Positions 3,488 to 38,458 are shown, numbered from the stretch's first letter. The stretch: DNA of 38,458 nucleotides from an uncultured Desulfobacteraceae bacterium (GCA_964436665.1 CAYTDY010000003.1:1-38458), one strand, 5' to 3'. Notes: generated by a model from the sequence alone, not told the origin. Made by a program: numbers and translations.

Positions 3488-3563
3488 TGGTGGAGATGAG
3501 GGGAATCGAACCCCTGACCTGTACGTTGCGAACGTACTGCTCTCCCATCTGAGCTACATCCCC
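3488..3563 (-). tRNA. tRNA-Ala (anticodon CGC)
   Basis: The reverse complement reads GGGGATGTAGCTCAGATGGGAGAGCAGTACGTTCGCAACGTACAGGTCAGGGGTTCGATTCCCCTCATCTCCACCA. It has a 7-bp acceptor stem with the G3:U70 Ala identity pair, anticodon loop TTCGCAA, a GGTTCGATTCC T-arm and an encoded CCA. Confidence 0.92.
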
Positions 3564-3785: not shown

Positions 3786-3889
3786 CCCTGGCCCAGGCCT
3801 GACTTGCAAAGACTTAGTTTTAGAAATTCAGACTTCGAAATATTGAGAGAACAACATCATGTTCCAAGCAATTCGCGCCAGGGCGGGCC
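3786..3889 (+). repeat. 104-bp repeat, family B, copy 2
   Basis: Reads CCCTGGCCCAGGCCTG...TCGCGCCAGGGCGGGCC, with the same length and termini as copy 1. It lies in the 463-bp non-coding gap between murJ and tRNA-Ala. Confidence 0.75.
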
Positions 3890-19227: not shown

Positions 19228-19281
19228 TTTTTTCCCTCTGTCATTGAAATGGCATCAATTTCGTTAAAGGCCTTTCTCTTG

Positions 19282-19414
19282 GAGACCTTTGAAAAATTAT
19301 CTTACATGTCATTGCGAGGAGCGAAGCGACGTGGCAATCTTTTATATTTTCAATGAGTTAGAGATTGCTTCACATTCGTTCGCAATGACAGAGCGGCCAT
19401 TTTTCAAAGGTCTC
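19282..19414 (+). mobile_element. 133-bp MITE, family C, copy 1
   Basis: Perfect 16-bp terminal inverted repeats GAGACCTTTGAAAAAT / ATTTTTCAAAGGTCTC. An internal imperfect hairpin pairs GTCATTGCGAGGAGCGAAGCGACGTGGCAATC with GATTGCTTCACATTCGTTCGCAATGAC. It differs at 4 of 133 positions from 29291-29423. The flanks are TCTTG and TCTTA. Confidence 0.8.
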
Positions 19415-19416
19415 TC

Positions 19417-19611
19417 TTAAAATTTAGCCATCCATTGTTCCAGCCTCTCTTGAATATGATTATTGACAAAATCTGTAGCTATTCTAATTGCATTCTTTAT
19501 AGCCTTAGAGGAAAAACCGCCATGACATATAATCCCAACCCCTTTAACCCCTAAAAGAAGAGTTCCTTGAACGATAACTCCGGGGGCATGGTCTCCTCCC
19601 ATTGCATCCAC
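19417..19611 (-). pseudogene. plsX: plsX remnant: in-frame fusion of the PlsX N-terminal and C-terminal motifs with ~240 internal codons missing
   Basis: The 64-codon ORF reads (NLNIAV)DAMGGDHAPGVIVQG, the PlsX N-terminus, joined directly to LLLGVKGVGIICHGGFSSKAIKNAIRIA, the PlsX C-terminal LLG..G..I..HG......NAI..A motif. It sits in the canonical position after yceD-rpmF. Confidence 0.6.
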
Positions 19612-22472: not shown

Positions 22473-22482
22473 TTCTCAAGTC

Positions 22483-22574
22483 AGTTCGCTCTGCTCACAA
22501 TTAGAATGTTTGAATACTGGAATCATGGAATGATGGGTTCTGGAAAAATGGGGTGTTGGTATATTGCAAAAATT
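22483..22574. repeat. Dispersed intergenic repeat, family A, copy 2
   Basis: AGTTCGCTCTGCTCACAATTAGAATGTTTGAATACTGGAATCATGGAATGATGGGTTCT... is in the same orientation as 567-658 and similar to it. Confidence 0.7.
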
Positions 22575-23672: not shown

Positions 23673-24584
23673 TCAAAGCATTGCTGCTTGATAGAGTTCT
23701 CTTGCATGATAAGAGCTCCGCACAAACGGTCCGCTGGCAACTTTAGAAAAACCCATTTTAAGAGCATTCTCCCTCCAGCTATCAAACTCTTCGGGATGTA
23801 TAAAGCGTTCAACCTGTAAGTATTTACGTGTGGGCTGAAGATATTGACCAAGTGTCAGGATGCTGCAGCCTACGTCAAGAAGGTCCTCCAGCGTTTTTTC
23901 AACTTCTTCGGGAAATTCTCCTAATCCGAGCATAAGACCTGACTTTGTGGGAATAGTGGGGTCAAAATTTTTTGCCTTCTTTAGTAATTCAAGTGAGCGA
24001 CTGTACACAGCCTCTGGCCGAACCGAATTATAAAGACGGGGGACGGTTTCAAGATTATGGTTCAAAACATCTGGATGAGCATTTATAACTGCATGAAGAG
24101 CATCTATATTCCCCTGAAAATCCGGTATCAAAATCTCCACAAGGGCTTTGGGCATCCTTTTGCGAATCTCTTTAATTGTTTCTGCAAAAAAACTTGCTCC
24201 TCCATCAGGGAGATCGTCCCGTGTGACAGAGGTGATGACTACATAGCACAACCCCATGCTTTGTGCAGCTTCGGCTACCCTGGCCGGTTCTCCAGGATCT
24301 GGCGAGCCTGGCTGTCTGTGTTCCACTGCGCAGAAACGGCAATTGCGGGTGCAATAAGGCCCCATAATCAGGAATGTTGAAGTCTGATGGGAAAAACACT
24401 CCCAGATGTTGGGACATTTGGCTTCCTCGCACACTGTGTGAAGCCGGCTTTTTTTTAGCAGATTCCTGACTTTTTCATATGTGGTCCCCGTTGGAAAACG
24501 CCGCTTTAGCCAGTGTGGCTTACCGCCCCGCGTTTTCTGTTGGAGGTTATGATTCATGTAGGCGTTCACAGGTTCAGATTTCAC
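23673..24584 (-). CDS. lipA: Lipoyl synthase
   Basis: 303 aa. Has the auxiliary cluster CEEAKCPNIWEC and the radical-SAM cluster CTRNCRFCAV, plus the C-terminal motif RSSY. Confidence 0.95.
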   Translation of the reverse strand: MKSEPVNAYMNHNLQQKTRGGKPHWLKRRFPTGTTYEKVRNLLKKSRLHTVCEEAKCPNIWECFSHQTSTFLIMGPYCTRNCRFCAVEHRQPGSPDPGEPARVAEAAQSMGLCYVVITSVTRDDLPDGGASFFAETIKEIRKRMPKALVEILIPDFQGNIDALHAVINAHPDVLNHNLETVPRLYNSVRPEAVYSRSLELLKKAKNFDPTIPTKSGLMLGLGEFPEEVEKTLEDLLDVGCSILTLGQYLQPTRKYLQVERFIHPEEFDSWRENALKMGFSKVASGPFVRSSYHARELYQAAML

Positions 24585-24703: not shown

Positions 24704-25474
24704 TTAAAAATCTTCAATCTTCAATTCCTTCAGGTCTATCATAACAAGCTCAACCCCAAAAATCGCTTTGATGTGATGCTTTACAGTCTCGCGGACTTTG
24801 CTCATGGATACTTTATGTGAGAGTTCCCGCTCAATGGAGGTCATCCCTATATCTTGAAGACCGCAGGGTTTTATCCATCCAAAAGGTTTCAGTGAAAGAC
24901 TGACATTAAATGCAATGCCATGGAAACAAATTCCATGGCGAATCGCTATCCCGATGCTCCCCAGTTTATTGTTGCCGACCCAGACTCCCCTGTTTATGGG
25001 ATTTCGTTCAGCCATTATTCCCTGGTCCGCAGCCGTCCTTATCATAACTTCTTCCAAATTGTCGACATAATCCGTTACCCCTAACCTGGATGTTCTCATG
25101 TCAATGATAGGGTAAACAACAAGCTGTCCTGGTCCGTGAAAGGTAATGTTGCCTCCCCTTTCTACTTGAATCACTGGAATTCCTGCTTTTTCCAGAAAAT
25201 CCTCAGACACAGTTAAATTATTCAACCCGCCCCTGCGGCCAAGAGTGAAAACAGGTAGGTGTTCCAAGAATAAAACAATATCCGTATCAATAATTCGATC
25301 TTTTCTTGCAGCTACAAGACTACATTGCAAATCCCATGCTTTAGCATATTCGATCGTTGATAGTTCTATATAAAGCCATTTTCTATTTCTATGGATAGAT
25401 TTATTATTACAGTACTTCAATGCGGAGTCTTTGTAATTGAATGGTGGAATCCTTCTTTTGTTCTTATGGGACAC
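24704..25474 (-). CDS. lipB: Octanoyl/lipoyl-(ACP):protein transferase
   Basis: 256 aa with EHLPVFTLGRRG, RGGNITFHGPGQLVVYPI and KLGSIGI. The GTG start lies 3 nt after the fdhA-like stop. The ~30-aa N-terminal extension is uncertain. Confidence 0.85.
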   Translation of the reverse strand: MSHKNKRRIPPFNYKDSALKYCNNKSIHRNRKWLYIELSTIEYAKAWDLQCSLVAARKDRIIDTDIVLFLEHLPVFTLGRRGGLNNLTVSEDFLEKAGIPVIQVERGGNITFHGPGQLVVYPIIDMRTSRLGVTDYVDNLEEVMIRTAADQGIMAERNPINRGVWVGNNKLGSIGIAIRHGICFHGIAFNVSLSLKPFGWIKPCGLQDIGMTSIERELSHKVSMSKVRETVKHHIKAIFGVELVMIDLKELKIEDF

Positions 25475-25477
25475 TAA

Positions 25478-27520
25478 TTATGGCTCTACACGCACTGCGC
25501 AAATTTTAAGCTCTGGAATCCCGGATTTAGTATCAAGCTCTTGCATAGTCAAGACGTTTGCCGAGGCCTCTGCAAAATGGATAGGGATGAAGAGTATATT
25601 TCGAGGAATAGTCTCCTTTATATGAGCTTTTACGTTTATGAAACCCCGTCTGGACTGTACCTTGATGATTTGCCCTTCTTGCACCCCAAGAAGAGACGCA
25701 TCTCGAGGGTTGATTTCAATATAGGCTTCATCCAACAGTGCTTGAAGGGTAGGAGACCGCCTCGTCATAGTACCAGTATGGAAGTGAAACAGAGTCCGAC
25801 CTGTTATCAAAACCATGGGATAATGTTTATCAGGTACCTCTGGTGGTGGATTATAATGTACAGGCACTAAAAGTCCTTTTCCGCGCGAAAACTGCTTCTC
25901 ATGAAGAAACTGTGTACCAGGATGACCCACCTCAGGACAAGGCCATTGAATTCCATTATCTCCCAAACAATTGTAGGACATTCCCCTGTAAATGGGTGTA
26001 ACTTGTGAAATTTCGCGGAAAACCTCCTCTGATGTTCTCCAATTCATCCCGTTGTAGCCCATACGACGGGATAGTTCCCCTATGGCTTGCCACTCTTGCT
26101 TGGCTCTTCCCAAAGGCTTAATGGCTTTATGAACCATTTGTACGCGCCGCTCTGTCGAAGTGAAGGTTCCATCTTTTTCGGCAAAGCTAACCCCAGGGAG
26201 GACTACATGAGCAAATGAAGCAGTTTCATTTAGAAAAATATCATGAACAACAAGTAAATCCAGCTGTTCTAACGCCTGAGAAATCTGTAGTGAATTTGGC
26301 ATTGAAAGAGCAGGGTTTTCTCCCATAATATACATCCAATGGATCTTCCCATTTAGAATCCCATTAAACATTTCGCACATGGTAACCCCAACTTCTCGTG
26401 GTAGCTGAGTTGTTGACCAAGTTTTCTGGAAAAACTTGTGAATAGAGGGATCGCTCACCCCCTGGTATCCAGGGAATACATCAGGAAGACACCCCACATC
26501 GCAAGTGCCCTGAACATTGTTTTGTCCTCTCAGAGGGTTCACACCAGTAGATCGCCGCCCGACGTTTCCCGTGATTAGCGCCAGATTAGTCAAGGCCAAC
26601 ACCGTGTCCGTTCCGGTAGCATGCTGAGTGACTCCCATGCCATACACTATGGATACCCTTTTGGCGTGGCCAAGAAGGCGAGCGGCCTTGACAATTTCTT
26701 TAGGCGGGACCCCAGTAATCTTTGATACACTTTCAGGAGTATAATCGATAATACTTTTTGCCAAGTCATCAAATCCCTCTACACGCTTTATGATGAAGTC
26801 CCGGTCTTCCATCCGCTCCTTTAGAATTATATGAATGAAGCCATTGATCAAAGCAATGTCGCTACCAGGATAAGGCTGGAGATACATATGACTGCATCCC
26901 GCTAAATCAATCCGGCGAGGATCAATTAAGATCAAAGTGCGATCCTTGTCCAGAATAGCCCTCAAAATTCTCCGACTGATGAGAGGATGCTGTTCAGTAG
27001 TGTTGGAGCCTATAATTAATAACACGTCCGCATCTTCCAGCTCCTCTATGCTATTAGTCATAGCCCCGCTGCCGAACGCAGTTGTCAGGCCGGTCATTGT
27101 GGAAGCGTGGCAAAGCCGGGCACAATTATCGATGTTAGACGTCTTCGCTACAGCTCTCCCAAACTTTTGAAGTGCGTAGTTATCCTCATTCGAGCACTTG
27201 GCTGATCCTATAAGACTTACGGCATGCGGACCATGCTTTTCCAAGACATGCAATAAACTCCTTCTAATCCAGTTTAAGGCTTCGTCCCAGCTGACAGTTC
27301 GGAAGGGCTGGGATCGGTCCTCTCTCAATAATGGTTGCTTCAACCTGTCATTATGTTCAATGAACTCATGAGCGCTCCATCCCTTGATGCAAAGCTTTCC
27401 CTGATTGACCCCTTTATCGCTGGGGTATACTCCTTCAATATGATGTTGATCATTCACTCTAAGAACTATGCGGCAGCCTACACCACAGAATGGGCAAATT
27501 GTTTCCACATCTTTGAACAT
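25478..27520 (-). CDS. fdhA: Formate dehydrogenase catalytic (alpha) subunit, FdhF/FdhH-like, cytoplasmic, Cys-type molybdo/tungstopterin enzyme
   Basis: 680 aa, colinear with E. coli FdhF as I recall it. It has the N-terminal CPFCGVGCRI...C 4Fe-4S motif, CARLCHAS (Cys-His where Sec-His sits in FdhF CARVUHGP) and the conserved VNPLRGQNNVQG Arg. There is no twin-arginine signal and no in-frame TGA. AAGGAA lies 7 nt upstream of the ATG. Confidence 0.85.
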   Translation of the reverse strand: MFKDVETICPFCGVGCRIVLRVNDQHHIEGVYPSDKGVNQGKLCIKGWSAHEFIEHNDRLKQPLLREDRSQPFRTVSWDEALNWIRRSLLHVLEKHGPHAVSLIGSAKCSNEDNYALQKFGRAVAKTSNIDNCARLCHASTMTGLTTAFGSGAMTNSIEELEDADVLLIIGSNTTEQHPLISRRILRAILDKDRTLILIDPRRIDLAGCSHMYLQPYPGSDIALINGFIHIILKERMEDRDFIIKRVEGFDDLAKSIIDYTPESVSKITGVPPKEIVKAARLLGHAKRVSIVYGMGVTQHATGTDTVLALTNLALITGNVGRRSTGVNPLRGQNNVQGTCDVGCLPDVFPGYQGVSDPSIHKFFQKTWSTTQLPREVGVTMCEMFNGILNGKIHWMYIMGENPALSMPNSLQISQALEQLDLLVVHDIFLNETASFAHVVLPGVSFAEKDGTFTSTERRVQMVHKAIKPLGRAKQEWQAIGELSRRMGYNGMNWRTSEEVFREISQVTPIYRGMSYNCLGDNGIQWPCPEVGHPGTQFLHEKQFSRGKGLLVPVHYNPPPEVPDKHYPMVLITGRTLFHFHTGTMTRRSPTLQALLDEAYIEINPRDASLLGVQEGQIIKVQSRRGFINVKAHIKETIPRNILFIPIHFAEASANVLTMQELDTKSGIPELKICAVRVEP

Positions 27521-27530
27521 TTCAAGTTCC

Positions 27531-28424
27531 TTATCGAAATTTTGAGGCTAAAGTTTTTTGACCTTCTTTGATCTTGTGCTTCTTGAAGCCAATGTCATCT
27601 AAACTCCATCCCATAGCAAGAGCCAGGAGTTCCAGAAAGTGAAATACAGGAAGCTGAACGTCGGTAATGCGCTTCCGAAAGGCCATCACCTGCCCAATCT
27701 CGAATTGTTGAAAGCAAAATGCACATGCTACAGACAATGCCTCAGCACCATATCGCTTCATATCTTCAACTTTTTTCTTCACCACAGTCAGAGAATCATC
27801 TAATGCTCCGGCTAAAGTCAGTGGAGCTCCACAACATATAGACTTTTCCCGGTAATCAACAACGCAGGCCCCCATTGCATCGAGAATCTTATCCGCCTTA
27901 ACAGGGCTAAAAGGATTGTCAAACTGCAAGATGGCTTTGGGGCTGCTTTCGTGGCATCCACTATGACAAGCAATTTTCAATTCGGCGAGCGGCCGCCTAA
28001 CTTCATCGCTGAGCCTCTTTAGGCCCACATCCTCATAGATCACCCTCAAAAAGTGCTTTACTGTAACCGGCCCATTGATATTATGGCCAACCTCTTCAAG
28101 CACCTGGTTTACTTTTCGGGCTAACATAGGCCGTTCCTGTAATTCCTGATTTGCCGTGGAAAGGGTAAATGTACAAGTGGGGCACAAAGTCAAGATAGGT
28201 AAACCAAGCCTCTGAGCGATAGATAAATTCCTGGCAGCGAGAGCTAACCACGTAAAGCGGTCCGCGGCCCCGAAACGCACAGGGTCTGGGCAGCAAGTAA
28301 AGCCTTCTGCATCTACTAACTCGATTCCTAATTGTGCTAGCGTCTTGCGAGCCAAGTATTCAAATTGGGGAAAACGGGTGGGAATCAAACATCCTAAAAA
28401 AAGCACGTATCTGATTGGTATCAT
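27531..28424 (-). CDS. hdrB: Heterodisulfide reductase subunit B-like protein (two CCG domains)
   Basis: The ATG at 28424 is preceded by AGGAGAGG, whereas the track ORF starts 20 codons earlier. FLGC...TCCPDP...CPTC and CHSGCH...ICCGAP...CAFC form two CCG domains, colinear with methanogen HdrB (TW.A.AARN, V.V.HF, DVGL, PV.H...LL.LAMG). Confidence 0.82.
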   Translation of the reverse strand: MIPIRYVLFLGCLIPTRFPQFEYLARKTLAQLGIELVDAEGFTCCPDPVRFGAADRFTWLALAARNLSIAQRLGLPILTLCPTCTFTLSTANQELQERPMLARKVNQVLEEVGHNINGPVTVKHFLRVIYEDVGLKRLSDEVRRPLAELKIACHSGCHESSPKAILQFDNPFSPVKADKILDAMGACVVDYREKSICCGAPLTLAGALDDSLTVVKKKVEDMKRYGAEALSVACAFCFQQFEIGQVMAFRKRITDVQLPVFHFLELLALAMGWSLDDIGFKKHKIKEGQKTLASKFR

Positions 28425-28509
28425 CTCTACCTCTCCTGAGTAACTTAATATGTAAAAGAGCATGAAGATATCTTTTTTTACCATGCCCTCACAATGACAA
28501 GTCGGTAGG

Positions 28510-28585
28510 CCGCTTCAAACCAGCGCACACGGACAAAGGCCCTAGAAGACAATGACGAGTTGCTTGTGCGCAGGGTTTGAAGCGG
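28510..28585. repeat. Long hairpin in the hdrC-hdrB spacer
   Basis: CCGCTTCAAACC (28510-28521) pairs perfectly with GGTTTGAAGCGG (28574-28585). GCGCAC/GTGCGC extends the stem to about 18 bp, with a 37-nt loop. Confidence 0.6.
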
Positions 28586-28737
28586 CACGCTGAGGCCCCC
28601 TATTAGAGGGCATGATGTGAAAAAAGACACCTCCATGCTCAATTTAACGTTTCTTTCATGAATAACCCGGAAGCGAAGCGCCGAGGTCATTTTCTGAGTA
28701 ATTATTTAGTTTTGTTCATGGCACTACTGGTGCTCTC

Positions 28738-29244
28738 TTATAGATACCGAATAACTGTAGAACTGGATCGGAGATTTTCTAACTTCTCTAGTAGTCCCGT
28801 GCGTTTTGCAATGCGCTGGATGTCCTCAACAGCCTCAAACTTGAATGCTGATAACCCTAGATTTTCACGTTCTTTGATAGCCTTTTGTGTTACTGGAAAA
28901 GACATCCCAGTTGAAAGCACCATCTCCACGAGTTTGTAAACAAAACTAGGCGCGTATCCTTCTTCTAATGAACGTTCTTGGAAGCTAGCAACCACACGGG
29001 CGAGATCTACATCTTGCGGGCATGATTCAGAGCATTTGTGGCATGCAGAGCAACACCATAGAGATAACTGTGCTTGAGGTTTATCTGATCGCAAAAGCTC
29101 ATAAAAAAAGGTTCGAGAATTGTCATATGCTTTTAAATGTTGAACCACGCAATGTAAGCTGCAAACACTGCATTCAAAGCAAAGATGTTGCAAAGTCAAA
29201 AATCCGTAATTCCGGTCCCGACCTATGTAATCAATCTGGATCAT
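28738..29244 (-). CDS. hdrC: Heterodisulfide reductase subunit C-like ferredoxin (2x[4Fe-4S])
   Basis: 168 aa. It has CFECSVCSLHC(V) and CCSACHKCSESCP motifs at HdrC-like spacing, and the C-terminal half is colinear with methanogen HdrC (TG...P......E.R...GL). Confidence 0.72.
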   Translation of the reverse strand: MIQIDYIGRDRNYGFLTLQHLCFECSVCSLHCVVQHLKAYDNSRTFFYELLRSDKPQAQLSLWCCSACHKCSESCPQDVDLARVVASFQERSLEEGYAPSFVYKLVEMVLSTGMSFPVTQKAIKERENLGLSAFKFEAVEDIQRIAKRTGLLEKLENLRSSSTVIRYL

Positions 29245-29290
29245 AGAAATAATTTTTTAGGGCATTAACCCAAAGCTTAGGATATATTTC

Positions 29291-29423
29291 GAGACCTTTG
29301 AAAAATTATCTTACAAGTCATTGCGAGGAACGAAGCGACGTGGCAATCTTTTATATTTTCAATGAGTTAGAGATTGCTTCACATTCATTCGCAATGACAG
29401 AGCGGCCATTTTTCAACGGTCTC
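29291..29423 (+). mobile_element. 133-bp MITE, family C, copy 2
   Basis: 129 of 133 positions are identical to 19282-19414. The terminal inverted repeats are GAGACCTTTGAAAAAT / ATTTTTCAACGGTCTC, flanked by a direct 5-bp duplication ATTTC | ATTTC. Confidence 0.85.
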
Positions 29424-29583
29424 ATTTCATATTCCTATCTTCTTAAGGAGATATTTATGTTGATTATCGTTCATATTATCAACTTTTCCATCAAGCAAAG
29501 TATCTTTTTTGTAACTTCACTCCGCATAGAGCATGGCGCATAGCAAATAACTCTCCGCGCTTTGCCCTTTGTGCTTTGCGCTT

Positions 29584-31041
29584 TCAGCCTGCAAGACATG
29601 GTTTCCGAGCCGCTGTTGTCTCATCCAGCCTTTTTACCTTGCAGATTTTTGGTGCTTCATGCAGCAGGTCCGGCTCTTCCATTGCCTCTTTTACAATGGC
29701 TTTGAATGCTTCAATGTATTGATCGAGGTCATCTTTTGACTCTGTCTCAGTTGGTTCGAACATGATCGCACCCTGTACTACCAACGGAAAATAAACGGTG
29801 GGCGGATGAAATCCGTAATCCATAAGTCGTTTTACCATTTCCAGGGTTGTAACCTTATAGGCCATTTGATATTTATCGGAAAAAACGCATTCATGCATAC
29901 ACGGTCTGTCATAGGCAAGATGTAATGTATCCTTTAACATTTCCTTGACATAATTTGCATTCAAGACAGCAAGCTGGCTGGCCTTTTTCAGATTTTTTGG
30001 CCCCATGCTACGAAGATAACTGTAAGCCTTTATCATGACCCCAAAATTTCCATGAAATGCTGAAATCTTGCCTATGGATTCAGGATAATTTTCAGCAAGA
30101 ATAAATCTGCCATTCTCCTGGATCACGCGCGGAACAGGCAGAAATGGCTCAAGATGCCTTTTGACACATACAGGACCTGAACCGGGACCTCCTCCCCCGT
30201 GGGGAGTCGAAAAGGTCTTATGGAGGTTAAGATGCATGATGTCAACCCCGATTTTGCCCATTTGTACAATACCCATAGCTGCATTCATGTTTGCACCGTC
30301 ACAATACACCAGCCCTCCTTTGGAGTGGACGATTTCGGCTATTTTTTGGATGTTTTCTTCAAAAAGACCAAGTGTGTTGGGGTTGGTTACCATAATTCCG
30401 GCTGTATCATCGTCCATGACATCAGCAATGGCCTCCGCAGAAAGTATCCCCTGTTCGTTGGATCTTACAGACACCGGACTGTAACCGCAGAGGGCCGCAC
30501 TGGCAGGGTTTGTCCCGTGAGCAGTATCCGGAATAATTATTTTTGAACGCCGCACCCCTTTGCTTTTATTAAAGGCATAAATAAGAAGCATTCCGGTAAG
30601 CTCTCCATGGGCCCCTGCTGCAGGCTGAAGGGTGGTTGCGTCCATACCCGTGATTTCAGCAAGATATTGCTCAAATTCAAACATAATCTTGAGAGCTCCC
30701 TGAGATAGATTGGCCGGAAGCAGGGGATGGGCCCAGCTAAATCCCGGAAGGCCTGCCTGCTTTTCATTTGTCTTCGGACTGTACTTCATGGTGCATGAAC
30801 CTAACGGGTACATACCAGAATCCACTCCGAAATTCCACTGGGACAGCCTGGTGTAATGACGTACCACATCAACCTCACTCAGATCCGGAAAGTCAGGGCC
30901 TTCGAATGTAAGGTCCTCATCCAAGGGGCAGGATTCAACGTCACGCCGGGGAATGGAAAATCCGCATCTTCCCTTTTTCCCCTTTTCCCAAAGTAGCGGT
31001 TCATTTAATATAAGGCCTGTAGTACCTAAAGATTCTTTCAT
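29584..31041 (-). CDS. gcvPB: Glycine dehydrogenase (aminomethyl-transferring) subunit 2
   Basis: 485 aa. HLNLHKTFSTPHGGGGPG carries the PLP-lysine motif. Confidence 0.95.
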   Translation of the reverse strand: MKESLGTTGLILNEPLLWEKGKKGRCGFSIPRRDVESCPLDEDLTFEGPDFPDLSEVDVVRHYTRLSQWNFGVDSGMYPLGSCTMKYSPKTNEKQAGLPGFSWAHPLLPANLSQGALKIMFEFEQYLAEITGMDATTLQPAAGAHGELTGMLLIYAFNKSKGVRRSKIIIPDTAHGTNPASAALCGYSPVSVRSNEQGILSAEAIADVMDDDTAGIMVTNPNTLGLFEENIQKIAEIVHSKGGLVYCDGANMNAAMGIVQMGKIGVDIMHLNLHKTFSTPHGGGGPGSGPVCVKRHLEPFLPVPRVIQENGRFILAENYPESIGKISAFHGNFGVMIKAYSYLRSMGPKNLKKASQLAVLNANYVKEMLKDTLHLAYDRPCMHECVFSDKYQMAYKVTTLEMVKRLMDYGFHPPTVYFPLVVQGAIMFEPTETESKDDLDQYIEAFKAIVKEAMEEPDLLHEAPKICKVKRLDETTAARKPCLAG

Positions 31042-31088: not shown

Positions 31089-32420
31089 TCAATTCCTCAA
31101 TTTGCTTACTAATTCATCCATTTCCTCCATGGACTTGGTTTCCGTTACACACAAAAGATAATGGTTGGCAAGTTCAGGATAATAGGGAGCCAGAGAAAGG
31201 CCTGCTATTATCTTTGTCTCCAGAAGGCGCTTGTAGTTGACCTCAAAGTCTGGAGGGAATTCCACCACGAATTCATTGAATGTGGGCCTGTCAAAGCTTA
31301 TTTTAAATCCCGCCTTTTTTAGTTCTTTTTTAAGATACTCGGCCTTATCATGGTTAAGACGGGCAAGTTCCCGTATCCCGGTACCTCCTACAGAGGCCAT
31401 ATACATTGCAGCCGCCAGAGCACAGAGGCTATTGTTGGTGCAAATGTTTGAAGTCGCCTTTTCCCTGCGAATATGCTGCTCCCTGGTAGCAAGCGTAAGA
31501 ACAAAGCCTCTTTTTCCATCCAGATCTTTTGTTTGGCCAATCAAGCGACCAGGTAAGTTGCGCATATATTCCTTTCTGCTTGCGAGGATCCCAAGTGCCG
31601 GTCCACCAAAGGTCTGGGGAATACCCAGACTCTGACCTTCTCCGCACACAATGTCAGCGCCTTGACTCCCGGGATTTTTAAGGAGCCCGTAAGCAAGTGC
31701 TTCTGTAAAGGAAGAGATGAAAAGGGCCTTTTTAGCATGAGCCTTTTCCCCAATGGCCTGTAGTTCTTCAATGCATCCTAAAAAATTTGGCGACTGAACC
31801 GCAACTGCTGCAAGGTCATCCATTTCATCAAGCCCTGTAAAATCGGTCATACCATTTTTAAGATAGTTAAGTTCCAAAACTTCATAACCGGTGGGATTAA
31901 AATAGGTTTGAACCACTCGACGATATAGAGGATGAATCAGACTTGAAATGGCGACTTTTCGCCTCTTTGTTACACGAACGGCCATAAGCAGTGATTCGGC
32001 CAGGGCTGTGGCACCATCATAATGCGATGCGGTTGCTATTTCCATACCCAGTAGCCTGGCAACAAGCGTCTGATACTCATAAATCGCCTGGAGTGTTCCC
32101 TGGCTCATTTCCGGCTGGTAGGGAGTATACGATGTTACAAACTCGGAGCGACCTAAAAGGTACGATACCGACGCAGGAATAAAATGTTCATAACTACCTG
32201 CTCCCATGAACACTTTATAATCCGGGGAGACGGCCATGCTACTGGAAATAGAGGCCATATGGTCATTCAATTCCCACTCGCTCAATGCCTCAGGCAGATT
32301 GAGATTGTCCCTTAAACGGCAATTCTCAGGGACGGTTGAGAAAAGACCGTCAAGGTCATCAACCCCCACAACCTTAAGCATTGAAGCAATTTCTTCACTG
32401 GTATGAGGCAAGTAAAGCAT
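31089..32420 (-). CDS. gcvPA: Glycine dehydrogenase (aminomethyl-transferring) subunit 1
   Basis: 443 aa with TSYTPYQPEMSQGTLQAIYEYQT. The start abuts the gcvH stop as TAAATG. Confidence 0.95.
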   Translation of the reverse strand: MLYLPHTSEEIASMLKVVGVDDLDGLFSTVPENCRLRDNLNLPEALSEWELNDHMASISSSMAVSPDYKVFMGAGSYEHFIPASVSYLLGRSEFVTSYTPYQPEMSQGTLQAIYEYQTLVARLLGMEIATASHYDGATALAESLLMAVRVTKRRKVAISSLIHPLYRRVVQTYFNPTGYEVLELNYLKNGMTDFTGLDEMDDLAAVAVQSPNFLGCIEELQAIGEKAHAKKALFISSFTEALAYGLLKNPGSQGADIVCGEGQSLGIPQTFGGPALGILASRKEYMRNLPGRLIGQTKDLDGKRGFVLTLATREQHIRREKATSNICTNNSLCALAAAMYMASVGGTGIRELARLNHDKAEYLKKELKKAGFKISFDRPTFNEFVVEFPPDFEVNYKRLLETKIIAGLSLAPYYPELANHYLLCVTETKSMEEMDELVSKLRN

Positions 32421-32825
32421 TTAATCTGCTCCTTTCAGTTTTTCAAGACACTCGGCATTGGTCATCAGGTCGTCCATCTCAGATGGATCGCTGGGATTGA
32501 CATCAACAAACCATCCATCGTTGTATGGATTTTTGTTCACAAGTTCAGGCGATTCTTCAAGGGCGGTGTTTACAGCAATAATTTCTCCGCCGACCGGCAA
32601 GTAACATTCCACAACCGCTTTTACTGATTCCACAGTTGCGAATTCTTTCCCCTTTTCAAAGGTATCACCTATCTGGGGCAGCTCCACGAAAACAATGTCT
32701 CCAAGCTGATCCTGGGCATAGTCATCAAGGCCGACCCTGATCCTATCGCCCTCAAGCCTGGCCCATTCATGATCTTCTGCATAGCGAATATCACCGGGTA
32801 AATTTAATTCATTGATTTCTTTCAT
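32421..32825 (-). CDS. gcvH: Glycine cleavage system H protein (lipoyl carrier)
   Basis: 134 aa. Has the lipoyl-lysine motif VESVKAV and an ATGA overlap with gcvT. Confidence 0.95.
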   Translation of the reverse strand: MKEINELNLPGDIRYAEDHEWARLEGDRIRVGLDDYAQDQLGDIVFVELPQIGDTFEKGKEFATVESVKAVVECYLPVGGEIIAVNTALEESPELVNKNPYNDGWFVDVNPSDPSEMDDLMTNAECLEKLKGAD

Positions 32826-34117
32826 AATCTCTTCTCCTTTTGCTCTATTATCTCCTCAATGGGACATAGTGCTGTACGATCAGGACGAATGTCACTCACA
32901 ATCATGACCTTTATTTTTCGCCTTTCATCTTTGAGTTCCACTACTTGCCCGGGATCCAGCTTGGACTTCACCTTTACAAAGCCGCAGCTCAATCCATGGG
33001 GTTTGAAATTTTCCGGTTTATCGGGGCTTGAAATGCTGTAAATCCGGTCTCCATGACGCCCAATTCCTATATCACAAACACAGGTAAGAACCAAACCTAT
33101 TTTATTGCCCTCAGAATCCAATACAATAGTCTGATCACAGACGGAAACCTTACGGAGGTCATAGCCTGTGAAGGCATAGGTGTATTCTGGTTTGTCTATA
33201 TCCTTAAGGGCTTCGTTTCCTATAAACTTTTTGGTAAAGTCTGTTCCGTCAGGATTGAAAGGCAGGGCAAAAGGCCACGGGTGATTGATGAATGGCCATG
33301 GACCGATATCCTGATGGGACAGGGGAAGGACCGCACTGGCCCTGAGAGAATCCCTGACCGCTAAGCCGCAGGGCAAAAGACCAAAATCTTGCCCTGCGTC
33401 AAAAATCATTTCCCAGACCTTGACGAGATGAAACTGGTCTACGAAAATTTCAAAGCCAAATTCCCCGGTATAGCCCGTTCGTGAAAGCAGAAGCGGCGTA
33501 CCGTCAATCAATCGTACCTTATCGGCAAGTGGAGATGCTTCATCAAAATGGCCCTTGAACGTAAAGTATAGCATGTCTTTAAAAACTTCTTCGTGATCTA
33601 CCAGAATTTTCATAAGGATCCTGGCGGCCATTGGACCCTGGATGTCCATTTTACCTATTTTATCCGTAAGGTCGTTAATTTCAACATTTCGCCTATCCCT
33701 GTAAGCCATCAGATGCCGTGCTACTTCACCGCCTAAGCCGGCGTTTACGACAGTCATGTAAGTGTTATGCTCCAACTGGTACAAGATTGCGTCATCAATG
33801 ACTTTGCCTGATTCATTAAGAAAGGCACCATAAACACATCTGCCAGGTACCAAAGGTGATTTGTCTTTCCCCACGCAGGCATACAGGTCTTTGGTAAGGC
33901 AGAGCTGGAGCAGTTCAAAAGCGTCAGGGCCTATAACCATGACCAGAGCCATATGGCTTGTATCGAAAATGCCAGCCTTTGTAAGAACCGCCAGATGTTC
34001 CTTTTTTGCACCTGCAGGATACCAGAGCGGCATTTCGTATTCTCCGAAACTGACCATATTGGCCCCATGGGCCACATGCCAATCATATAAAGGAGTCTTC
34101 TTCGTTTCCTTTTGCAT
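32822..34117 (-). CDS. gcvT: Glycine cleavage system T protein (aminomethyltransferase), long form
   Basis: 431 aa with TPLYDWHVAHGANMVSFGEYEMPLWYP and GIFDTSHM. The C-terminus is about 60 aa longer than in typical GcvT. Confidence 0.9.
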   Translation of the reverse strand: MQKETKKTPLYDWHVAHGANMVSFGEYEMPLWYPAGAKKEHLAVLTKAGIFDTSHMALVMVIGPDAFELLQLCLTKDLYACVGKDKSPLVPGRCVYGAFLNESGKVIDDAILYQLEHNTYMTVVNAGLGGEVARHLMAYRDRRNVEINDLTDKIGKMDIQGPMAARILMKILVDHEEVFKDMLYFTFKGHFDEASPLADKVRLIDGTPLLLSRTGYTGEFGFEIFVDQFHLVKVWEMIFDAGQDFGLLPCGLAVRDSLRASAVLPLSHQDIGPWPFINHPWPFALPFNPDGTDFTKKFIGNEALKDIDKPEYTYAFTGYDLRKVSVCDQTIVLDSEGNKIGLVLTCVCDIGIGRHGDRIYSISSPDKPENFKPHGLSCGFVKVKSKLDPGQVVELKDERRKIKVMIVSDIRPDRTALCPIEEIIEQKEKRL

Positions 34118-34248: not shown

Positions 34249-34692
34249 TTAAAGTATATAAGGGACCTTCAAGTTGTAGCCCTTGTAAATCACGAAGCTC
34301 TCCACGGACCGAATGTCCTTTAACCGATACACCTCCTCTGTGTAAAATTCCAACAAGTTAAACCCTTCCTTTAAAAGGACCACCAGCATTAGATCATATC
34401 GGCCTGTTACAACGCTTGCAGACACCACCCCCTTTAACTTGCTGAATTCCTCAGCTTTTTTGACCAGATTCAAGGTATTTAATTTAACGCCGACCATGAC
34501 CACCCTGTGCCCAGAAATGGCTTCCGGGTCCACGAGTCCAGAGATCTCCAGAATTCCTTTGTTTAATAATTTGTTGACCCGCGCTCTCACCGTGTTTTCG
34601 GAAATACCCAGTTCATCGGCAATCATTTTGAAGGATTTTCTTCCATCTCTAAGGTGCCTAATAATTGTGATGGTGGTTTCGTCTATGTTCAT
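34249..34692 (-). CDS. Lrp/AsnC family transcriptional regulator
   Basis: MNIDETTITIIRHLRDGRKSFKMIADELGISENTVRARVNKLLNKGIL is the HTH, followed by a RAM-type C-domain. I chose the start at 34692 from typical family length. An alternative ATG is at 34725. Confidence 0.85.
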   Translation of the reverse strand: MNIDETTITIIRHLRDGRKSFKMIADELGISENTVRARVNKLLNKGILEISGLVDPEAISGHRVVMVGVKLNTLNLVKKAEEFSKLKGVVSASVVTGRYDLMLVVLLKEGFNLLEFYTEEVYRLKDIRSVESFVIYKGYNLKVPYIL

Positions 34693-34858
34693 ATTAAATA
34701 TACCCCCGCTTAATATTGGCGACATCAATAATCGAATCAGTCAGGATATCAAGATGCCTCAACTTTTGGACGATACCTAAATATTATTAAATTATATTTT
34801 TTAATTATGCTTTTCATTCCTCAACTTTTTTCCAACGATAGTAGACAATAAGATAATA

Positions 34859-35432: not shown

Positions 35433-35454
35433 GGAGAAGGAAAGGAGATGATTG

Positions 35455-38106
35455 ATGAGCGACCTTCAAAAAACTATTTTCTATGACCGGCATGTGGCCT
35501 TGGGCGCCAAGATAGTGGAATTTGCCGGTTGGGAGATGCCTATTTTCTACCCCACCGGTATCGTGGAGGAGCATCTGGCCACCCGCAAGGGAGCTGGGTT
35601 TTTTGACGTTTCCCACATGGGACGATTCATCGTCCGAGGTCCTGGTGCGGTGAAATTTCTTCAGCACGTCTTGAGCAATAATGTTGAAGCTCTTGATGTC
35701 AGAGGGATGGGTGCTCAGTACACGCTCATCGCCACCAAAACAGGTGGGGCTGTAGACGATGCATATCTCTATCGCTTTGTCGAGGAGGAGTATCTCTTGG
35801 TGGTAAATGCAGCTAACTACGAGAAGGATTGGAATCACTTCCAGATGTTTTTAAAGGATTTCCACGATGTTGAGCTTATAGACCGCACCGGAGAGATTAT
35901 CATGCTTGCGCTGCAAGGGCCGATGTCACGGCAAATCTTAGAAGAGATTATACAATCAGGTCCTCTCCCGGAACCAATGCGAAACGCCGTGAGTATCGTG
36001 ACGATCTCCGGTTCCAATGTGAAGGTAGCCCGCACCGGCTACACAGGCGAGCCGTTGTGTTTTGAGCTCTTCGCCAGCCAACACGACGGCCCGATGCTGT
36101 GGGACCTGATCGTGGCTAATGGAGCGACTCCCGTCGGTCTTGGTGCGCGGGATACGCTCCGCTTAGAAGCGGGCATGCCACTTTATGGCCATGAATTGGG
36201 TGAAGACCCTGACGGCAAGGAAATCCCCATAATGGCCTGTCCTTTGTCTAAGTTCGCTGTGAGCTTTTCACCATTGAAAGGGGAATTTATAGGCCGTGAG
36301 GAGCTATCTAAGCAACATAAAGCGTTCGAGAAAATCATCTCGCGCGATTACTCGCTCATCAATGACCTGCCGCGCATGATCAAGCCGATCGCTGTTGCAG
36401 GGCGAGGAATTGCCCGTGAGGGATCTAAGGTGTTTAAAGGTGACAGGCACGTCGGCCATGTCACCAGTGGCACGATGATCCCGATGTGGTCCGTCGAGGG
36501 TGAAGGACTGGAATCTGCGCAGACTGACCAACATAAGTTGCGGTCAATCTGCCTGGGATACATTGACAGTGACATCATTGAGGACGAGAGGATCATCTTA
36601 GAGATTCGCGGTAAGTTAGTTGATGCTGTAGTGGTTCCATTCCACATGCGAACTGATGCCCCGTCATACGCCCGCCCGATCGTCTTCGATCACCAATTGC
36701 CGACAAAGGAATTGCCAACCCGTGATGCACCGGCCAAGGCCCGCATTCTTCTCGAAAAAACCGTGGAGAATACTCTCTGGCGACAGCGAGAATGCATTAA
36801 CCTCATCCCCTCTGAGATGACGATCTCGCCGATGGCCAGGCTTCTTTCGGTTATGGATCCGGCCTTTCGCTACGCTGAGCATAAAAAATCCAAGGCATTC
36901 TATGACGCTGACATCTTCTACTACCAAGGAACCGATTTCATCGGTGAGGTAGAGCGGATGCTGGAAGAGGAAATTCGAAAATTCCTTGGCTGCCAGAATG
37001 TTGAGACGCGGCTCATCAGCGGGCAGATGGCTAACATCGCTGTTTTCAGTGCAATTCTCGACTACATCAATCGCGCTGATCGGAAACGTGAGCCTCGACG
37101 AATTCGCCAGGTGATGAGCAACCATATCAGCAAAGGTGGCCACCTCAGCGCCCAGCCTATGGGTGCGCTAAAGGACTACGTGGCCCGGGACCCACATACG
37201 GAGCGCCCGGCCGTGGTGAATTTCCCGGTGCTAGCCGACAATCCTTACAAGACTGATGTGCCAGCCATGTTGAAATTGATCGATGAGTATCGTCCAGAGC
37301 TGATAATTTTTGGCAAGAGCATGGTTTTGCATAAAGAGCCAGTCTTCGAGATCCGCCAGTTCCTCGACGTTCAGGATATTAATGCAGTGGTTATGTACGA
37401 CATGGCTCACGTGCTCGGACTCATCGGTCCATACTTCCAGCAGCCCTTTTCAGAAGGAGCCGATCTTGTCACCGGATCAACACACAAGACATACTTTGGC
37501 ACACAGCGAGGCATCGTCGGGAGCCGTTTTCATGAGCACGAGGAACTTTACGAACTTTGGGAGGCTCTCCTTCGAAGAACTTTCCCCGGTTCGGTGTCCA
37601 ACCATCACCTTGGCACATTGCTGGGTCTGCTGATGGCTGCTTACGAGATGAATCATTTCAAGGACGAATATCAGGCCAAGGTCATTGCTAATTCAAAGGC
37701 ATTTGCCAGGGCGCTAAAGGATTCTGGTCTAAATGTGGCTGGAGACCCCTATATCGACTTCACTGAAACCCACCAGGTGGTGGTGAACGTAGGCTACAGC
37801 CGCGGGCCGGAAATCGCCAAACAACTTGAAGTCAACAACATTATCTGCAACTATCAGGCGAGTCCCGATGAAGAGAGCTTTACTGTCGCCGGCGCTCTGC
37901 GTATGGGCGTATCTGAGATGACTCGCTTTGGTATGGAAGAAGACGACTTCCGCGCCTTAGCTCTGCTGATCCATGACGTGGTGATAAAGGATATTAATGT
38001 CACTGATCAGGTGAAAGCACTCCGGGAACGATTCCGAGAACTTCAGTTCTGCTTCCGTGATGATAAATACGCTGATATATTGCAGAAGCTACATGACCTT
38101 CTGTAA
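35455..38106 (+). CDS. Fusion protein: complete GcvT-type aminomethyltransferase (N, ~400 aa) plus a divergent serine hydroxymethyltransferase-like PLP domain (C, ~450 aa)
   Basis: The N-terminal part has IFYDRHVALGAKIVEFAGWEMPIFYP, FFDVSHMGRF, ARTGYTGE and GLGARDTLRLEAGMPLYGHEL. The C-terminal part has INLIPSEMTISP, GGHLS, DMAHVLGLIG, GSTHKTYFGTQRGIV (PLP Lys context), FPGSVSNHH and LRMGVSEMTRFGM. It is one uninterrupted frame, and the linker lies at about 36655-36745. Confidence 0.85.
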   Translation: MSDLQKTIFYDRHVALGAKIVEFAGWEMPIFYPTGIVEEHLATRKGAGFFDVSHMGRFIVRGPGAVKFLQHVLSNNVEALDVRGMGAQYTLIATKTGGAVDDAYLYRFVEEEYLLVVNAANYEKDWNHFQMFLKDFHDVELIDRTGEIIMLALQGPMSRQILEEIIQSGPLPEPMRNAVSIVTISGSNVKVARTGYTGEPLCFELFASQHDGPMLWDLIVANGATPVGLGARDTLRLEAGMPLYGHELGEDPDGKEIPIMACPLSKFAVSFSPLKGEFIGREELSKQHKAFEKIISRDYSLINDLPRMIKPIAVAGRGIAREGSKVFKGDRHVGHVTSGTMIPMWSVEGEGLESAQTDQHKLRSICLGYIDSDIIEDERIILEIRGKLVDAVVVPFHMRTDAPSYARPIVFDHQLPTKELPTRDAPAKARILLEKTVENTLWRQRECINLIPSEMTISPMARLLSVMDPAFRYAEHKKSKAFYDADIFYYQGTDFIGEVERMLEEEIRKFLGCQNVETRLISGQMANIAVFSAILDYINRADRKREPRRIRQVMSNHISKGGHLSAQPMGALKDYVARDPHTERPAVVNFPVLADNPYKTDVPAMLKLIDEYRPELIIFGKSMVLHKEPVFEIRQFLDVQDINAVVMYDMAHVLGLIGPYFQQPFSEGADLVTGSTHKTYFGTQRGIVGSRFHEHEELYELWEALLRRTFPGSVSNHHLGTLLGLLMAAYEMNHFKDEYQAKVIANSKAFARALKDSGLNVAGDPYIDFTETHQVVVNVGYSRGPEIAKQLEVNNIICNYQASPDEESFTVAGALRMGVSEMTRFGMEEDDFRALALLIHDVVIKDINVTDQVKALRERFRELQFCFRDDKYADILQKLHDLL

Positions 38107-38277: not shown

Positions 38278-38458
38278 GGTCATTGCGAACGAATGTGAAG
38301 CAATCCCTGGCCCAGACCCCTGGCCCAGACCTGGCATGCAAGGGCTGAGTTCTATGGATTATACACCCGAAGTATTACAGTTTCTCTACAGTATTCCAGC
38401 AAAGTCGCGCCAGGGCGGGCTCAATAGGATAGATTGCCACGTCGCTTCCCGCCACGTT
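38278..38458 (-). mobile_element. Divergent family C core hairpin (opposite orientation), split by a nested family B element and truncated by the window end
   Basis: GTCATTGCGAACGAATGTGAAGCAATC (38278-38304) and GATTGCCACGTCGCTTC (38432-38448) are the reverse complements of the two core arms of the 19282 and 29291 copies. The outer terminal inverted repeats are not recognisable. Confidence 0.6.
38305..38420 (+). repeat. Family B repeat, copy 3 (116 bp, about 104 bp plus a 13-bp tandem duplication of its 5' end)
   Basis: Reads CCCTGGCCCAGAC CCCTGGCCCAGACCTG...GTCGCGCCAGGGCGGGC. It is inserted in the loop of the family C core hairpin. CAAT precedes the element, and TCAAT follows it. Confidence 0.75.

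Follow-up and report, generated by a model that had tools for sequence, protein, structure and literature searches.

A candidate formate:lipoyl-H-protein oxidoreductase encoded by an HdrA-less hdrC-hdrB-fdhA trio in a glycine cleavage and lipoate operon

In a genome of an uncultured Desulfobacteraceae bacterium, three genes that resemble the HdrC and HdrB subunits of heterodisulfide reductase and the catalytic subunit of formate dehydrogenase (hdrC, hdrB and fdhA, hereafter the trio) are located between gcvPB and lipB, among the genes for glycine cleavage and lipoate assembly. The stretch analyzed comprises 38,458 nucleotides (GCA_964436665.1 CAYTDY010000003.1:1-38458) and is termed the window; loci of relatives are designated by L and a number. 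We propose, with about even confidence, that the trio encodes a non-bifurcating formate:lipoyl-H-protein oxidoreductase in the role of the L-protein, tying glycine cleavage and synthesis to formate/CO2 instead of NAD(H). An initial annotation of the window, made from the DNA alone, had located the three genes, which are all present on the minus strand, and had described a non-bifurcating, soluble formate:disulfide oxidoreductase with an unknown disulfide substrate. The description of the enzyme remains the natural reading, given that HdrA, MvhD and FdhB are missing both here and in relatives, but it left out the operon context: the flanking genes had been overlooked, and the position of the trio between gcvPB and lipB points to the lipoyl disulfide of GcvH as a candidate substrate.

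The trio is part of a co-oriented minus-strand run (34728->23673) that reads AsnC-type regulator, gcvT, gcvH, gcvPA, gcvPB, hdrC, hdrB, fdhA, lipB and lipA (Table 1). Spacing is tight around fdhA, with 10 nt between hdrB and fdhA and 3 nt between the fdhA stop and the lipB start as listed. The only long gaps in the run are those flanking hdrC; both contain repeat elements, whose insertion explains their size. Sequence comparison indicates that the juxtaposition of hdrC, hdrB and fdhA is not due to chance, because their order is kept in every readable locus of the clade described below and because the dN/dS values relative to L023, a metagenomic relative that is 92-95% identical, are 0.19 for hdrB, 0.19 for fdhA and 0.30 for hdrC.

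We surveyed 80 related gcv loci anchored on GcvPB, 64 of which had enough downstream sequence to be read. The usual operon is (asnC)-(gcvT)-gcvH-gcvPA-gcvPB-slot-lipB-lipA, where the slot is variable. In 26 of the 64 loci lipB or lipA directly follows gcvPB, and 15 have no downstream lip gene; the slot is otherwise occupied by a flavoprotein disulfide reductase of the CoADR/Nox class (10 loci; 522 aa, with an active-site Cys in FSPCGLP), an alpha/beta hydrolase (6 loci), something else (6 loci), or the trio (1 locus, designated both L105 and L014). Only 6 of the 80 gcv loci have a classical lpd gene within 10 kb. The closest relative, L044, is a Desulfobacteraceae metagenome-assembled genome (MAG) in which GcvPB is 93%, GcvH 98%, GcvT 95%, GcvPA 96%, and LipB and LipA 78% identical to the proteins of the window. 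The two loci are perfectly syntenic, including a divergent GcvT-SHMT (serine hydroxymethyltransferase) gene, and their sole difference is a flavoprotein disulfide reductase (L044:8866-10434) that replaces hdrC-hdrB-fdhA. The same reductase occupies the slot in L054, L055, L059, L065, L067, L069, L071, L093 and L115; it has a single active-site Cys in FSPCGLP, scores under the CoADR equivalog cut-off, and precedes lipB wherever lipB exists, and it may be a non-canonical L-protein. The alternation of two unrelated disulfide reductases at one operon position is, in our view, the strongest argument for a thiol/disulfide role of the trio. It suggests a function that belongs to the gcv-lip system, for which redox cycling of lipoyl-GcvH is the obvious candidate.

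The subunits themselves are readily assigned. FdhA contains the Pfam domains Fe4S4, Molybdopterin and Molydop_binding and scores 796.5 bits with TIGR01591, above the NCBIfam equivalog cut-off of 666.25. Among solved structures it matches the F420-Fdh alpha subunit (1e-207), FdhF of the hydrogen-dependent CO2 reductase (HDCR; 2e-193) and Escherichia coli FdhH (3e-162). Structure and sequence alignment agree with the initial annotation, which had described an FdhF-like protein with Cys in place of selenocysteine (Sec) in CARLCHAS, a conserved Arg and no Tat signal: Cys137 aligns to Sec and is followed by His138, the Arg lies within NPLRGQNNVQG, and the N-terminus opens directly on the [4Fe-4S] motif CPFCGVGC, leaving no room for a Tat signal. 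An in-frame TGA (Sec) is found exactly at the position of Cys137 in FdhA of L006 (L006:10920-12959), where gene callers split fdhA into pieces of 135 aa and 539 aa; TGA is also present at the catalytic position in L134 and L138. This Sec/Cys interchange, together with the dN/dS values of 0.19-0.30, indicates by comparative analysis that the trio enzyme is active and under selection.

HdrB contains the Pfam CCG domain twice (8.5e-28). The two CX31-39CCX35-36CXXC motifs comprise C32, C64C65 and C101xxC104, and C177, C217C218 and C254xxC257 (numbering of a 317-aa form, see below), and the ten Cys are all invariant in 17 sequences. Its best solved-structure matches are methanogen HdrB chains (9e-66, ~40% identity). 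With the NCBIfam models it scores 261 bits for HdrB (TIGR03288), 121 for SdhE, 49 for TfrB, 28 for GlpC and 23 for GlcF, with no match to the LutA model, and a profile built from the HdrB proteins of the trio clade retrieved HdrB chains only among solved structures. The protein is thus the bona fide HdrB with both CCG domains that the initial annotation had claimed, and the contrary outcome it had named, a placement among GlcF/LutA-type enzymes, finds no support in these far higher HdrB scores and in the HdrB-only matches of the clade profile. The score of 261 bits is below the CoB-CoM (coenzyme B-coenzyme M) equivalog cut-off of 345 for TIGR03288; by these scores the protein belongs to the HdrB family and is no CoB-CoM equivalog. 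HdrC is a homolog of the methanogen subunit (best match 8rvv_C, 3e-11) with two CxxCxxCxxxC motifs, the first ending in CV instead of CP, as previously noted (C32-V33 and C75-P76). Its eight Cys are all invariant among 8 orthologs. Pfam matches are to Fer4-type families only, and the score with TIGR03290 is 60 bits, under the equivalog cut-off of 160. The family checks suggested with the initial annotation therefore gave matches to CCG, to the HdrB and HdrC models and to the molybdopterin families, with the equivalog level reached by FdhA.

The true start of HdrB is M21, at 28424, giving a protein of 297 aa. Both the 317-aa form and a 70-aa open reading frame (ORF) at 28478-28690 were rejected as artifacts, since the extra 20 codons and the ORF lie inside a 261-bp insertion without counterpart in L023. 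This insertion, flanked by a duplication of TTACTCAG, is palindromic with arms of ~90 bp, and the entire 313-nt gap between hdrC and hdrB (28425-28737), insertion included, has a folding z-score of -5.3. It looks like a miniature inverted-repeat transposable element (MITE) and is no part of the enzyme; it accounts for the odd hdrC-hdrB spacing and for the spurious ORFs.

The partners that accompany HdrB, HdrC and FdhA in methanogens are missing. HdrA-like, FlpD/MvhD, FrhB-like, Lpd and CoADR-like queries returned nothing from the window by tblastn at E <= 0.1, and hdrA, mvhD and fdhB were immediately adjacent to the trio in none of ~37 trio loci. The earlier statement that HdrA, MvhD, FdhB and a membrane anchor are absent thus holds in the window and in relatives, including for the case of an hdrA or mvhD gene immediately adjacent in relatives, which had been named as evidence that the locus is only a fragment. 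As neither the trio nor the window has homology to Lpd (TIGR01350), the likeness to the L-protein is a functional analogy only.

A link between the trio and lipoyl genes is also observed outside this operon arrangement. HdrB homologs form a tight clade of 55-92% identity from MAGs of Deltaproteobacteria/Thermodesulfobacteriota, after which identity drops to <=46%. A single-protein genome scan with HdrB gave only relatives of 35-40% identity without fdhA, so alignment-based scans were required. The clade is rare (5 species among GTDB representatives), and hdrC-hdrB-fdhA is intact throughout its readable loci. In four deep-branching lineages the trio is tied to gcvH, lipA/lipB or lpd in four different arrangements: that of the window; gcvTHPAPB-lipA-trio in L014; lpd-trio-tauE-gcvH-x-lipB-lipA-DAO in L006, where Lpd is genuine (TIGR01350, 526 bits vs a cut-off of 409); and trio-lipB-lipA-DAO in L008, which has no gcvH within 10 kb. 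The remaining lineages, about half of the clade, share a thrC-DUF3795-ABC_ATPase context that gives no functional clue. A neighbor-joining tree of HdrB and FdhA, with an Atribacterota trio as root, groups the thrC-context loci in one nested clade (89% bootstrap) and leaves the lipoyl-linked loci as a basal grade. Because of this basal position, the lipoyl linkage is most simply explained as ancestral and kept through rearrangements, as far as gene order and the tree can tell. Two side observations concern these loci: a ThiO/SoxB/MTOX-like FAD amine oxidase is encoded after lipA in both L006 (13015-18182 region) and L008 (14680-15843), the two proteins being 66% identical to each other, and between fdhA and lipB, L006 also encodes an exporter of the TauE family and a 197-aa protein without annotation.

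More distant trios extend well beyond this clade. A scan seeded with a group of HdrB proteins of 45% identity retrieved the order hdrC-hdrB-fdhA in 25 of 80 loci (L126-L143, L145-L147, L149, L153, L156 and L161, with no adjacent hdrA or mvhD), from Atribacterota (L126-128), Promethearchaeota (Asgard archaea, L129-133), other Thermodesulfobacteriota (L134 and L138) and many Bathyarchaeia. Catalytic Cys-His or Sec-His is kept in all 25 (23 Cys, 2 TGA). HdrA/FlpD genes lie within 10 kb in 3 of the 25, never adjacent, and are absent from that distance in the other 22. HdrB genes of lower identity in the same scan were mostly found directly with hdrA and flpD. Gene order and sequence conservation thus identify the HdrA-less trio as a distinct, widespread module across several bacterial and archaeal phyla. 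Not every member of the 45% HdrB group is a trio: L022 was rejected, as hdrB is followed there by a restriction-modification methylase and not by fdhA. Lipoyl linkage beyond Desulfobacterota is rare, with a GcvH-like gene ~3.3 kb away in two Bathyarchaeia loci (L137 and L140). In L137 (25-6242, minus strand), and similarly in L140, genes for a 197-aa GcvH-like protein, a GltD/NfnB-like flavoprotein, an FlpD(MvhD)-HTH protein and a 1010-aa HdrA-like protein are clustered divergently from the trio. For the cultured Asgard archaeon MK-D1, a single FdhA has been reported (PMC7015854).

Table 1 Features of the gcv-trio-lip run in the window.
Feature	Position	Strand	Basis
AsnC/Lrp-family regulator, upstream of gcvT	34249..34728	-	Pfam; position kept in relatives (synteny)
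gcvT (aminomethyltransferase)	32822..34117	-	65% identity to the L014 gene bearing Pfam GCV_T
gcvH, lipoyl-carrying H-protein	32421..32825	-	Pfam GCV_H 1e-39; NCBIfam gcvH equivalog passed, 148 vs 116 bits
gcvPA (glycine dehydrogenase subunit 1)	31089..32420	-	70% identity to the L014 gene bearing Pfam GDC-P
gcvPB (glycine dehydrogenase subunit 2)	29584..31041	-	Pfam GcvP2_C and GDC-P
hdrC-like, 168 aa, ferredoxin-like subunit	28738..29244	-	Pfam Fer4 families, solved HdrC structures
261-bp MITE-like palindromic insertion, hdrC-hdrB gap	28430..28690 (approximate borders)		Missing in L023; flanking duplication
hdrB-like, 297 aa, predicted catalytic disulfide-reductase subunit	27531..28424	-	Pfam CCG twice, solved HdrB structures
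fdhA, 680 aa, cytoplasmic Mo/W-bisPGD (bis-pyranopterin guanine dinucleotide) formate dehydrogenase catalytic subunit	25478..27520	-	Pfam, TIGR01591, solved structures
lipB (octanoyltransferase)	24704..25474	-	Pfam LplA-B_cat 8e-42
lipA (lipoyl synthase)	23673..24584	-	Pfam Radical_SAM and LIAS_N

Several further elements were noted in the window. The gcvPB-hdrC gap contains a dispersed intergenic repeat of 146 nt (29288-29433), with a 94% identical copy at 19279-19424 and partial inverted copies at 38279-38456; other short repeat families are located at 562-838, 3786-3889, 22478-22574 and 38318-38421. On the plus strand, 35452-38106 encodes an 884-aa protein, divergent from the gcv operon, in which a GcvT-type aminomethyltransferase domain is fused to serine hydroxymethyltransferase; the same fusion, 59-85% identical, is found beside the gcv operon of 25 or more related Desulfobacterales loci. 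The sole Rfam match in the window is a tRNA gene (3491-3563, minus strand); the scan found no glycine riboswitch, including upstream of gcvT, and the hdrC-hdrB gap matched none of the known RNAs. Promoter and terminator scans did not exceed the level of shuffled sequences, and operon boundaries were not obtained from them.

The cofactor-binding motifs correspond to one Mo/W-bisPGD and one [4Fe-4S] cluster in FdhA, two [4Fe-4S] clusters in HdrC and two non-cubane clusters in HdrB. We propose that the three subunits would assemble into a soluble, flavin-free, non-bifurcating heterotrimer in which formate is oxidized at the Mo/W-bisPGD site of FdhA (Cys137/His138/Arg) and electrons pass from the [4Fe-4S] cluster of FdhA through the two clusters of HdrC to the two non-cubane clusters of HdrB, which would reduce a disulfide, most likely the lipoyl group of GcvH. 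The trio would thereby stand in for the L-protein (dihydrolipoyl dehydrogenase), exchanging electrons with formate/CO2 where that enzyme uses NAD(H). The potentials of CO2/formate, lipoamide and NADH are ~-430 mV, ~-290 mV and ~-320 mV, respectively, which gives a standard free-energy change of ~-27 kJ/mol for lipoyl reduction by formate. The trio would therefore favor glycine synthesis (the reductive glycine direction); the reverse, disposal of glycine-cleavage electrons as formate, would be possible only at very low formate. In L006, the trio, GcvH and Lpd together could operate as a formate:NAD+ oxidoreductase with the lipoyl protein as mediator.

A lipoyl substrate is chemically plausible on two counts. 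The arm of CoB (7-mercaptoheptanoyl) resembles the lipoyl arm. In addition, the revised potential of CoM-S-S-CoB, quoted as -281 mV in PMC12054007, is near that of lipoamide. There is also precedent for such a pairing: the sHdr system works with the lipoate-binding protein LbpA (PMC6067878), and GcvH has been suggested as HdrB partner and disulfide carrier in Culexarchaeia (PMC9723716). Finally, the proposal is supported by the lipoyl linkage of the trio in L014, L006, L008 and the window, which is independent of gene order.

Several observations weigh against the proposal. What points to lipoyl-GcvH as the substrate is gene neighborhood, and neither the thrC-DUF3795-ABC_ATPase loci, about half of the Desulfobacterota trio loci, nor most of the distant trios (Atribacterota, Promethearchaeota and Bathyarchaeia) have a gcv or lip gene within 10 kb; lipoyl-GcvH can therefore not be claimed as a universal substrate. 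A true Lpd is present beside the trio in L006, where the trio is not a simple Lpd replacement, and, with 38 kb of the source genome covered, an lpd gene may be located elsewhere. Among the four linked contexts, lipA neighbors the trio in all and gcvH in only three. Lastly, the slot is not always filled by a disulfide reductase in relatives, being empty in some and occupied by an alpha/beta hydrolase in others.

These observations leave room for other functions, the most credible of which, although we consider it unlikely, is that of the initial annotation: a generic HdrA-independent formate:disulfide oxidoreductase that acts on a pool of small thiols/disulfides or persulfides and whose position in the gcv-lip operon is incidental or indirect. 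Such an enzyme fits the fact that, once the four lipoyl-linked lineages are set aside, most trio loci, those of Atribacterota, Promethearchaeota and Bathyarchaeia among them, have no gcv or lip neighbor. It also fits the slot alternative, a member of the CoA-disulfide/persulfide reductase class, in which small-molecule disulfides are the usual substrates. It leaves unexplained, however, why four deep-branching lineages, each with its own gene order, have the trio linked to gcvH, lipA/lipB or lpd, and why the fdhA-lipB junction is tight, and no genes for biosynthesis of a special thiol were seen nearby. Alternatively, the trio could be what is seen here of a larger bifurcating FdhAB-MvhD-HdrABC-type complex, with HdrA, MvhD and FdhB encoded elsewhere in the genome, as these three are contained in all characterized formate-dependent Hdr complexes (structures 7bkb and 9t1s) and as separate HdrA/FlpD clusters occur within 10 kb of the trio in L006, L008, L137, L140 and L146. 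We regard this as improbable: those clusters are divergent, and in L008 and L146 they have their own hdrB/hdrC; across the ~37 trio loci no adjacent gene for a missing partner is co-oriented with the trio; 22 of the 25 distant trios have no hdrA, mvhD or fdhB within 10 kb; the HdrB homologs that do sit beside hdrA/flpD are the lower-identity remainder of the survey; and the window itself encodes none of the three partners.

Two further explanations take their cue from the lipoyl genes themselves. The trio could serve lipoyl assembly and not turnover, for instance by passing formate-derived electrons to the radical-SAM enzyme LipA or by maintaining the new dithiol, in line with lipA being the one gene linked in all four lipoyl contexts and with L008, which has lipB and lipA with no gcvH within 10 kb. 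But LipA needs a low-potential one-electron donor and no disulfide reductase, its product is already a dithiol, and the slot alternative is a disulfide reductase; moreover, gcvPB is directly beside lip genes in 26 of the 64 relatives, so that a trio linked to the gcv operon will be linked to lipA as well. Such a role thus seems slightly less probable still. The other explanation is a sulfur oxidation akin to sHdr, with a lipoate-binding protein as carrier of sulfur or electrons and a sulfur compound as the substrate of the molybdoenzyme. In its favor, a TauE-family exporter lies between fdhA and gcvH in L006, and linkage to lipoate-binding proteins and lipoate-assembly genes is a constant feature of sHdr systems (PMC6067878). 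This explanation is nevertheless very improbable, given that the molybdoenzyme passes the FdhA equivalog cut-off and keeps Sec/Cys-His and Arg, that the H-protein scores above the equivalog cut-off for gcvH and is encoded together with gcvT and gcvP, and that sHdrA, a second HdrBC set, DsrE and TusA are all missing.

We compared the trio, read as a formate:lipoyl-H-protein oxidoreductase, with the known systems that it resembles in part. The methanogen FdhAB-MvhD-HdrABC complex (7bkb, 9t1s/9sfi) has homologous and colinear subunits (FdhA 1e-207, HdrB ~1e-62, HdrC ~1e-10), with the same Sec/Cys-His-Arg site, two CCG non-cubane motifs and two HdrC clusters. The trio differs in lacking, here and beside any relative, MvhD, FdhB and HdrA with its bifurcating FAD, in having HdrB and HdrC under the CoB-CoM equivalog cut-offs, and in its bacterial host and gcv/lip context in place of methanogenesis. 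With the L-protein (Lpd, TIGR01350) it would share the redox cycling of lipoyl/dihydrolipoyl GcvH, and it is located where a redox partner of the H-protein is expected in a gcv operon; its Fe-S and Mo/W enzymes are, however, unrelated to the FAD/NAD flavoprotein, its couple would be formate/CO2 and not NAD(H), and a true Lpd coexists with it in L006. The sHdr-LbpA system of Hyphomicrobium denitrificans and others (PMC6067878) also ties Hdr-type CCG subunits to a lipoyl protein of the GcvH family and to lipoate-assembly genes. It has an HdrA-like flavoprotein, two HdrBC sets, a dedicated LbpA, its own ligase/LipS and no formate dehydrogenase, whereas the trio has a single hdrCB pair, FdhA, no HdrA-like gene, and canonical GcvH, LipB and LipA as neighbors.

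The nearest structural analogy is HDCR (FdhF-HycB-HydA2; 7qv7), in which a closely related FdhF (2e-193) is wired directly to small polyferredoxin-like subunits without a flavin, and which provides a reversible, non-bifurcating model for the docking of FdhA on an Fe-S subunit; its partner module is a hydrogenase and not a disulfide reductase. DsrK/DsrC and the archaeal HdrBC-hydrogenase modules (Ehd/Ehe/Drh; PMC9723716) similarly use a CCG subunit without HdrA on a protein-bound disulfide or trisulfide, but they are membrane-bound, receive electrons from quinol or a hydrogenase and have no FdhA. In the searchable full-text literature, which does not include subscription-only papers, we found neither a report of an HdrA-less FdhA-HdrBC nor one of Hdr genes located in gcv operons.

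Bacterial HdrBC-type modules have long lacked an assigned physiological disulfide, and this locus gives a concrete candidate, lipoyl-GcvH, because substrate, enzyme and cofactor-assembly genes are found in one operon. The Hdr catalytic core would here be wired directly to a formate dehydrogenase without a bifurcating flavoprotein, in a minimal module that is also present in Asgard archaea, Bathyarchaeia and Atribacterota. If our proposal is correct, glycine cleavage/synthase has a new redox partner, and formate (~-430 mV) instead of NADH (~-320 mV) would give a much stronger push to glycine, with a bearing on both natural and engineered reductive glycine pathways. More tentatively, and with somewhat less than even confidence in the following taken jointly, FdhA-HdrBC would be a third, NAD-independent H-protein oxidoreductase that allows some anaerobes to operate glycine synthase, the reductive glycine pathway, directly with formate as both carbon source and reductant, protein-bound lipoyl groups would be the physiological disulfide for many non-methanogen HdrBC modules, and the trio of Asgard archaea, Bathyarchaeia and Atribacterota would be a general thiol/disulfide-to-formate valve of anaerobes.

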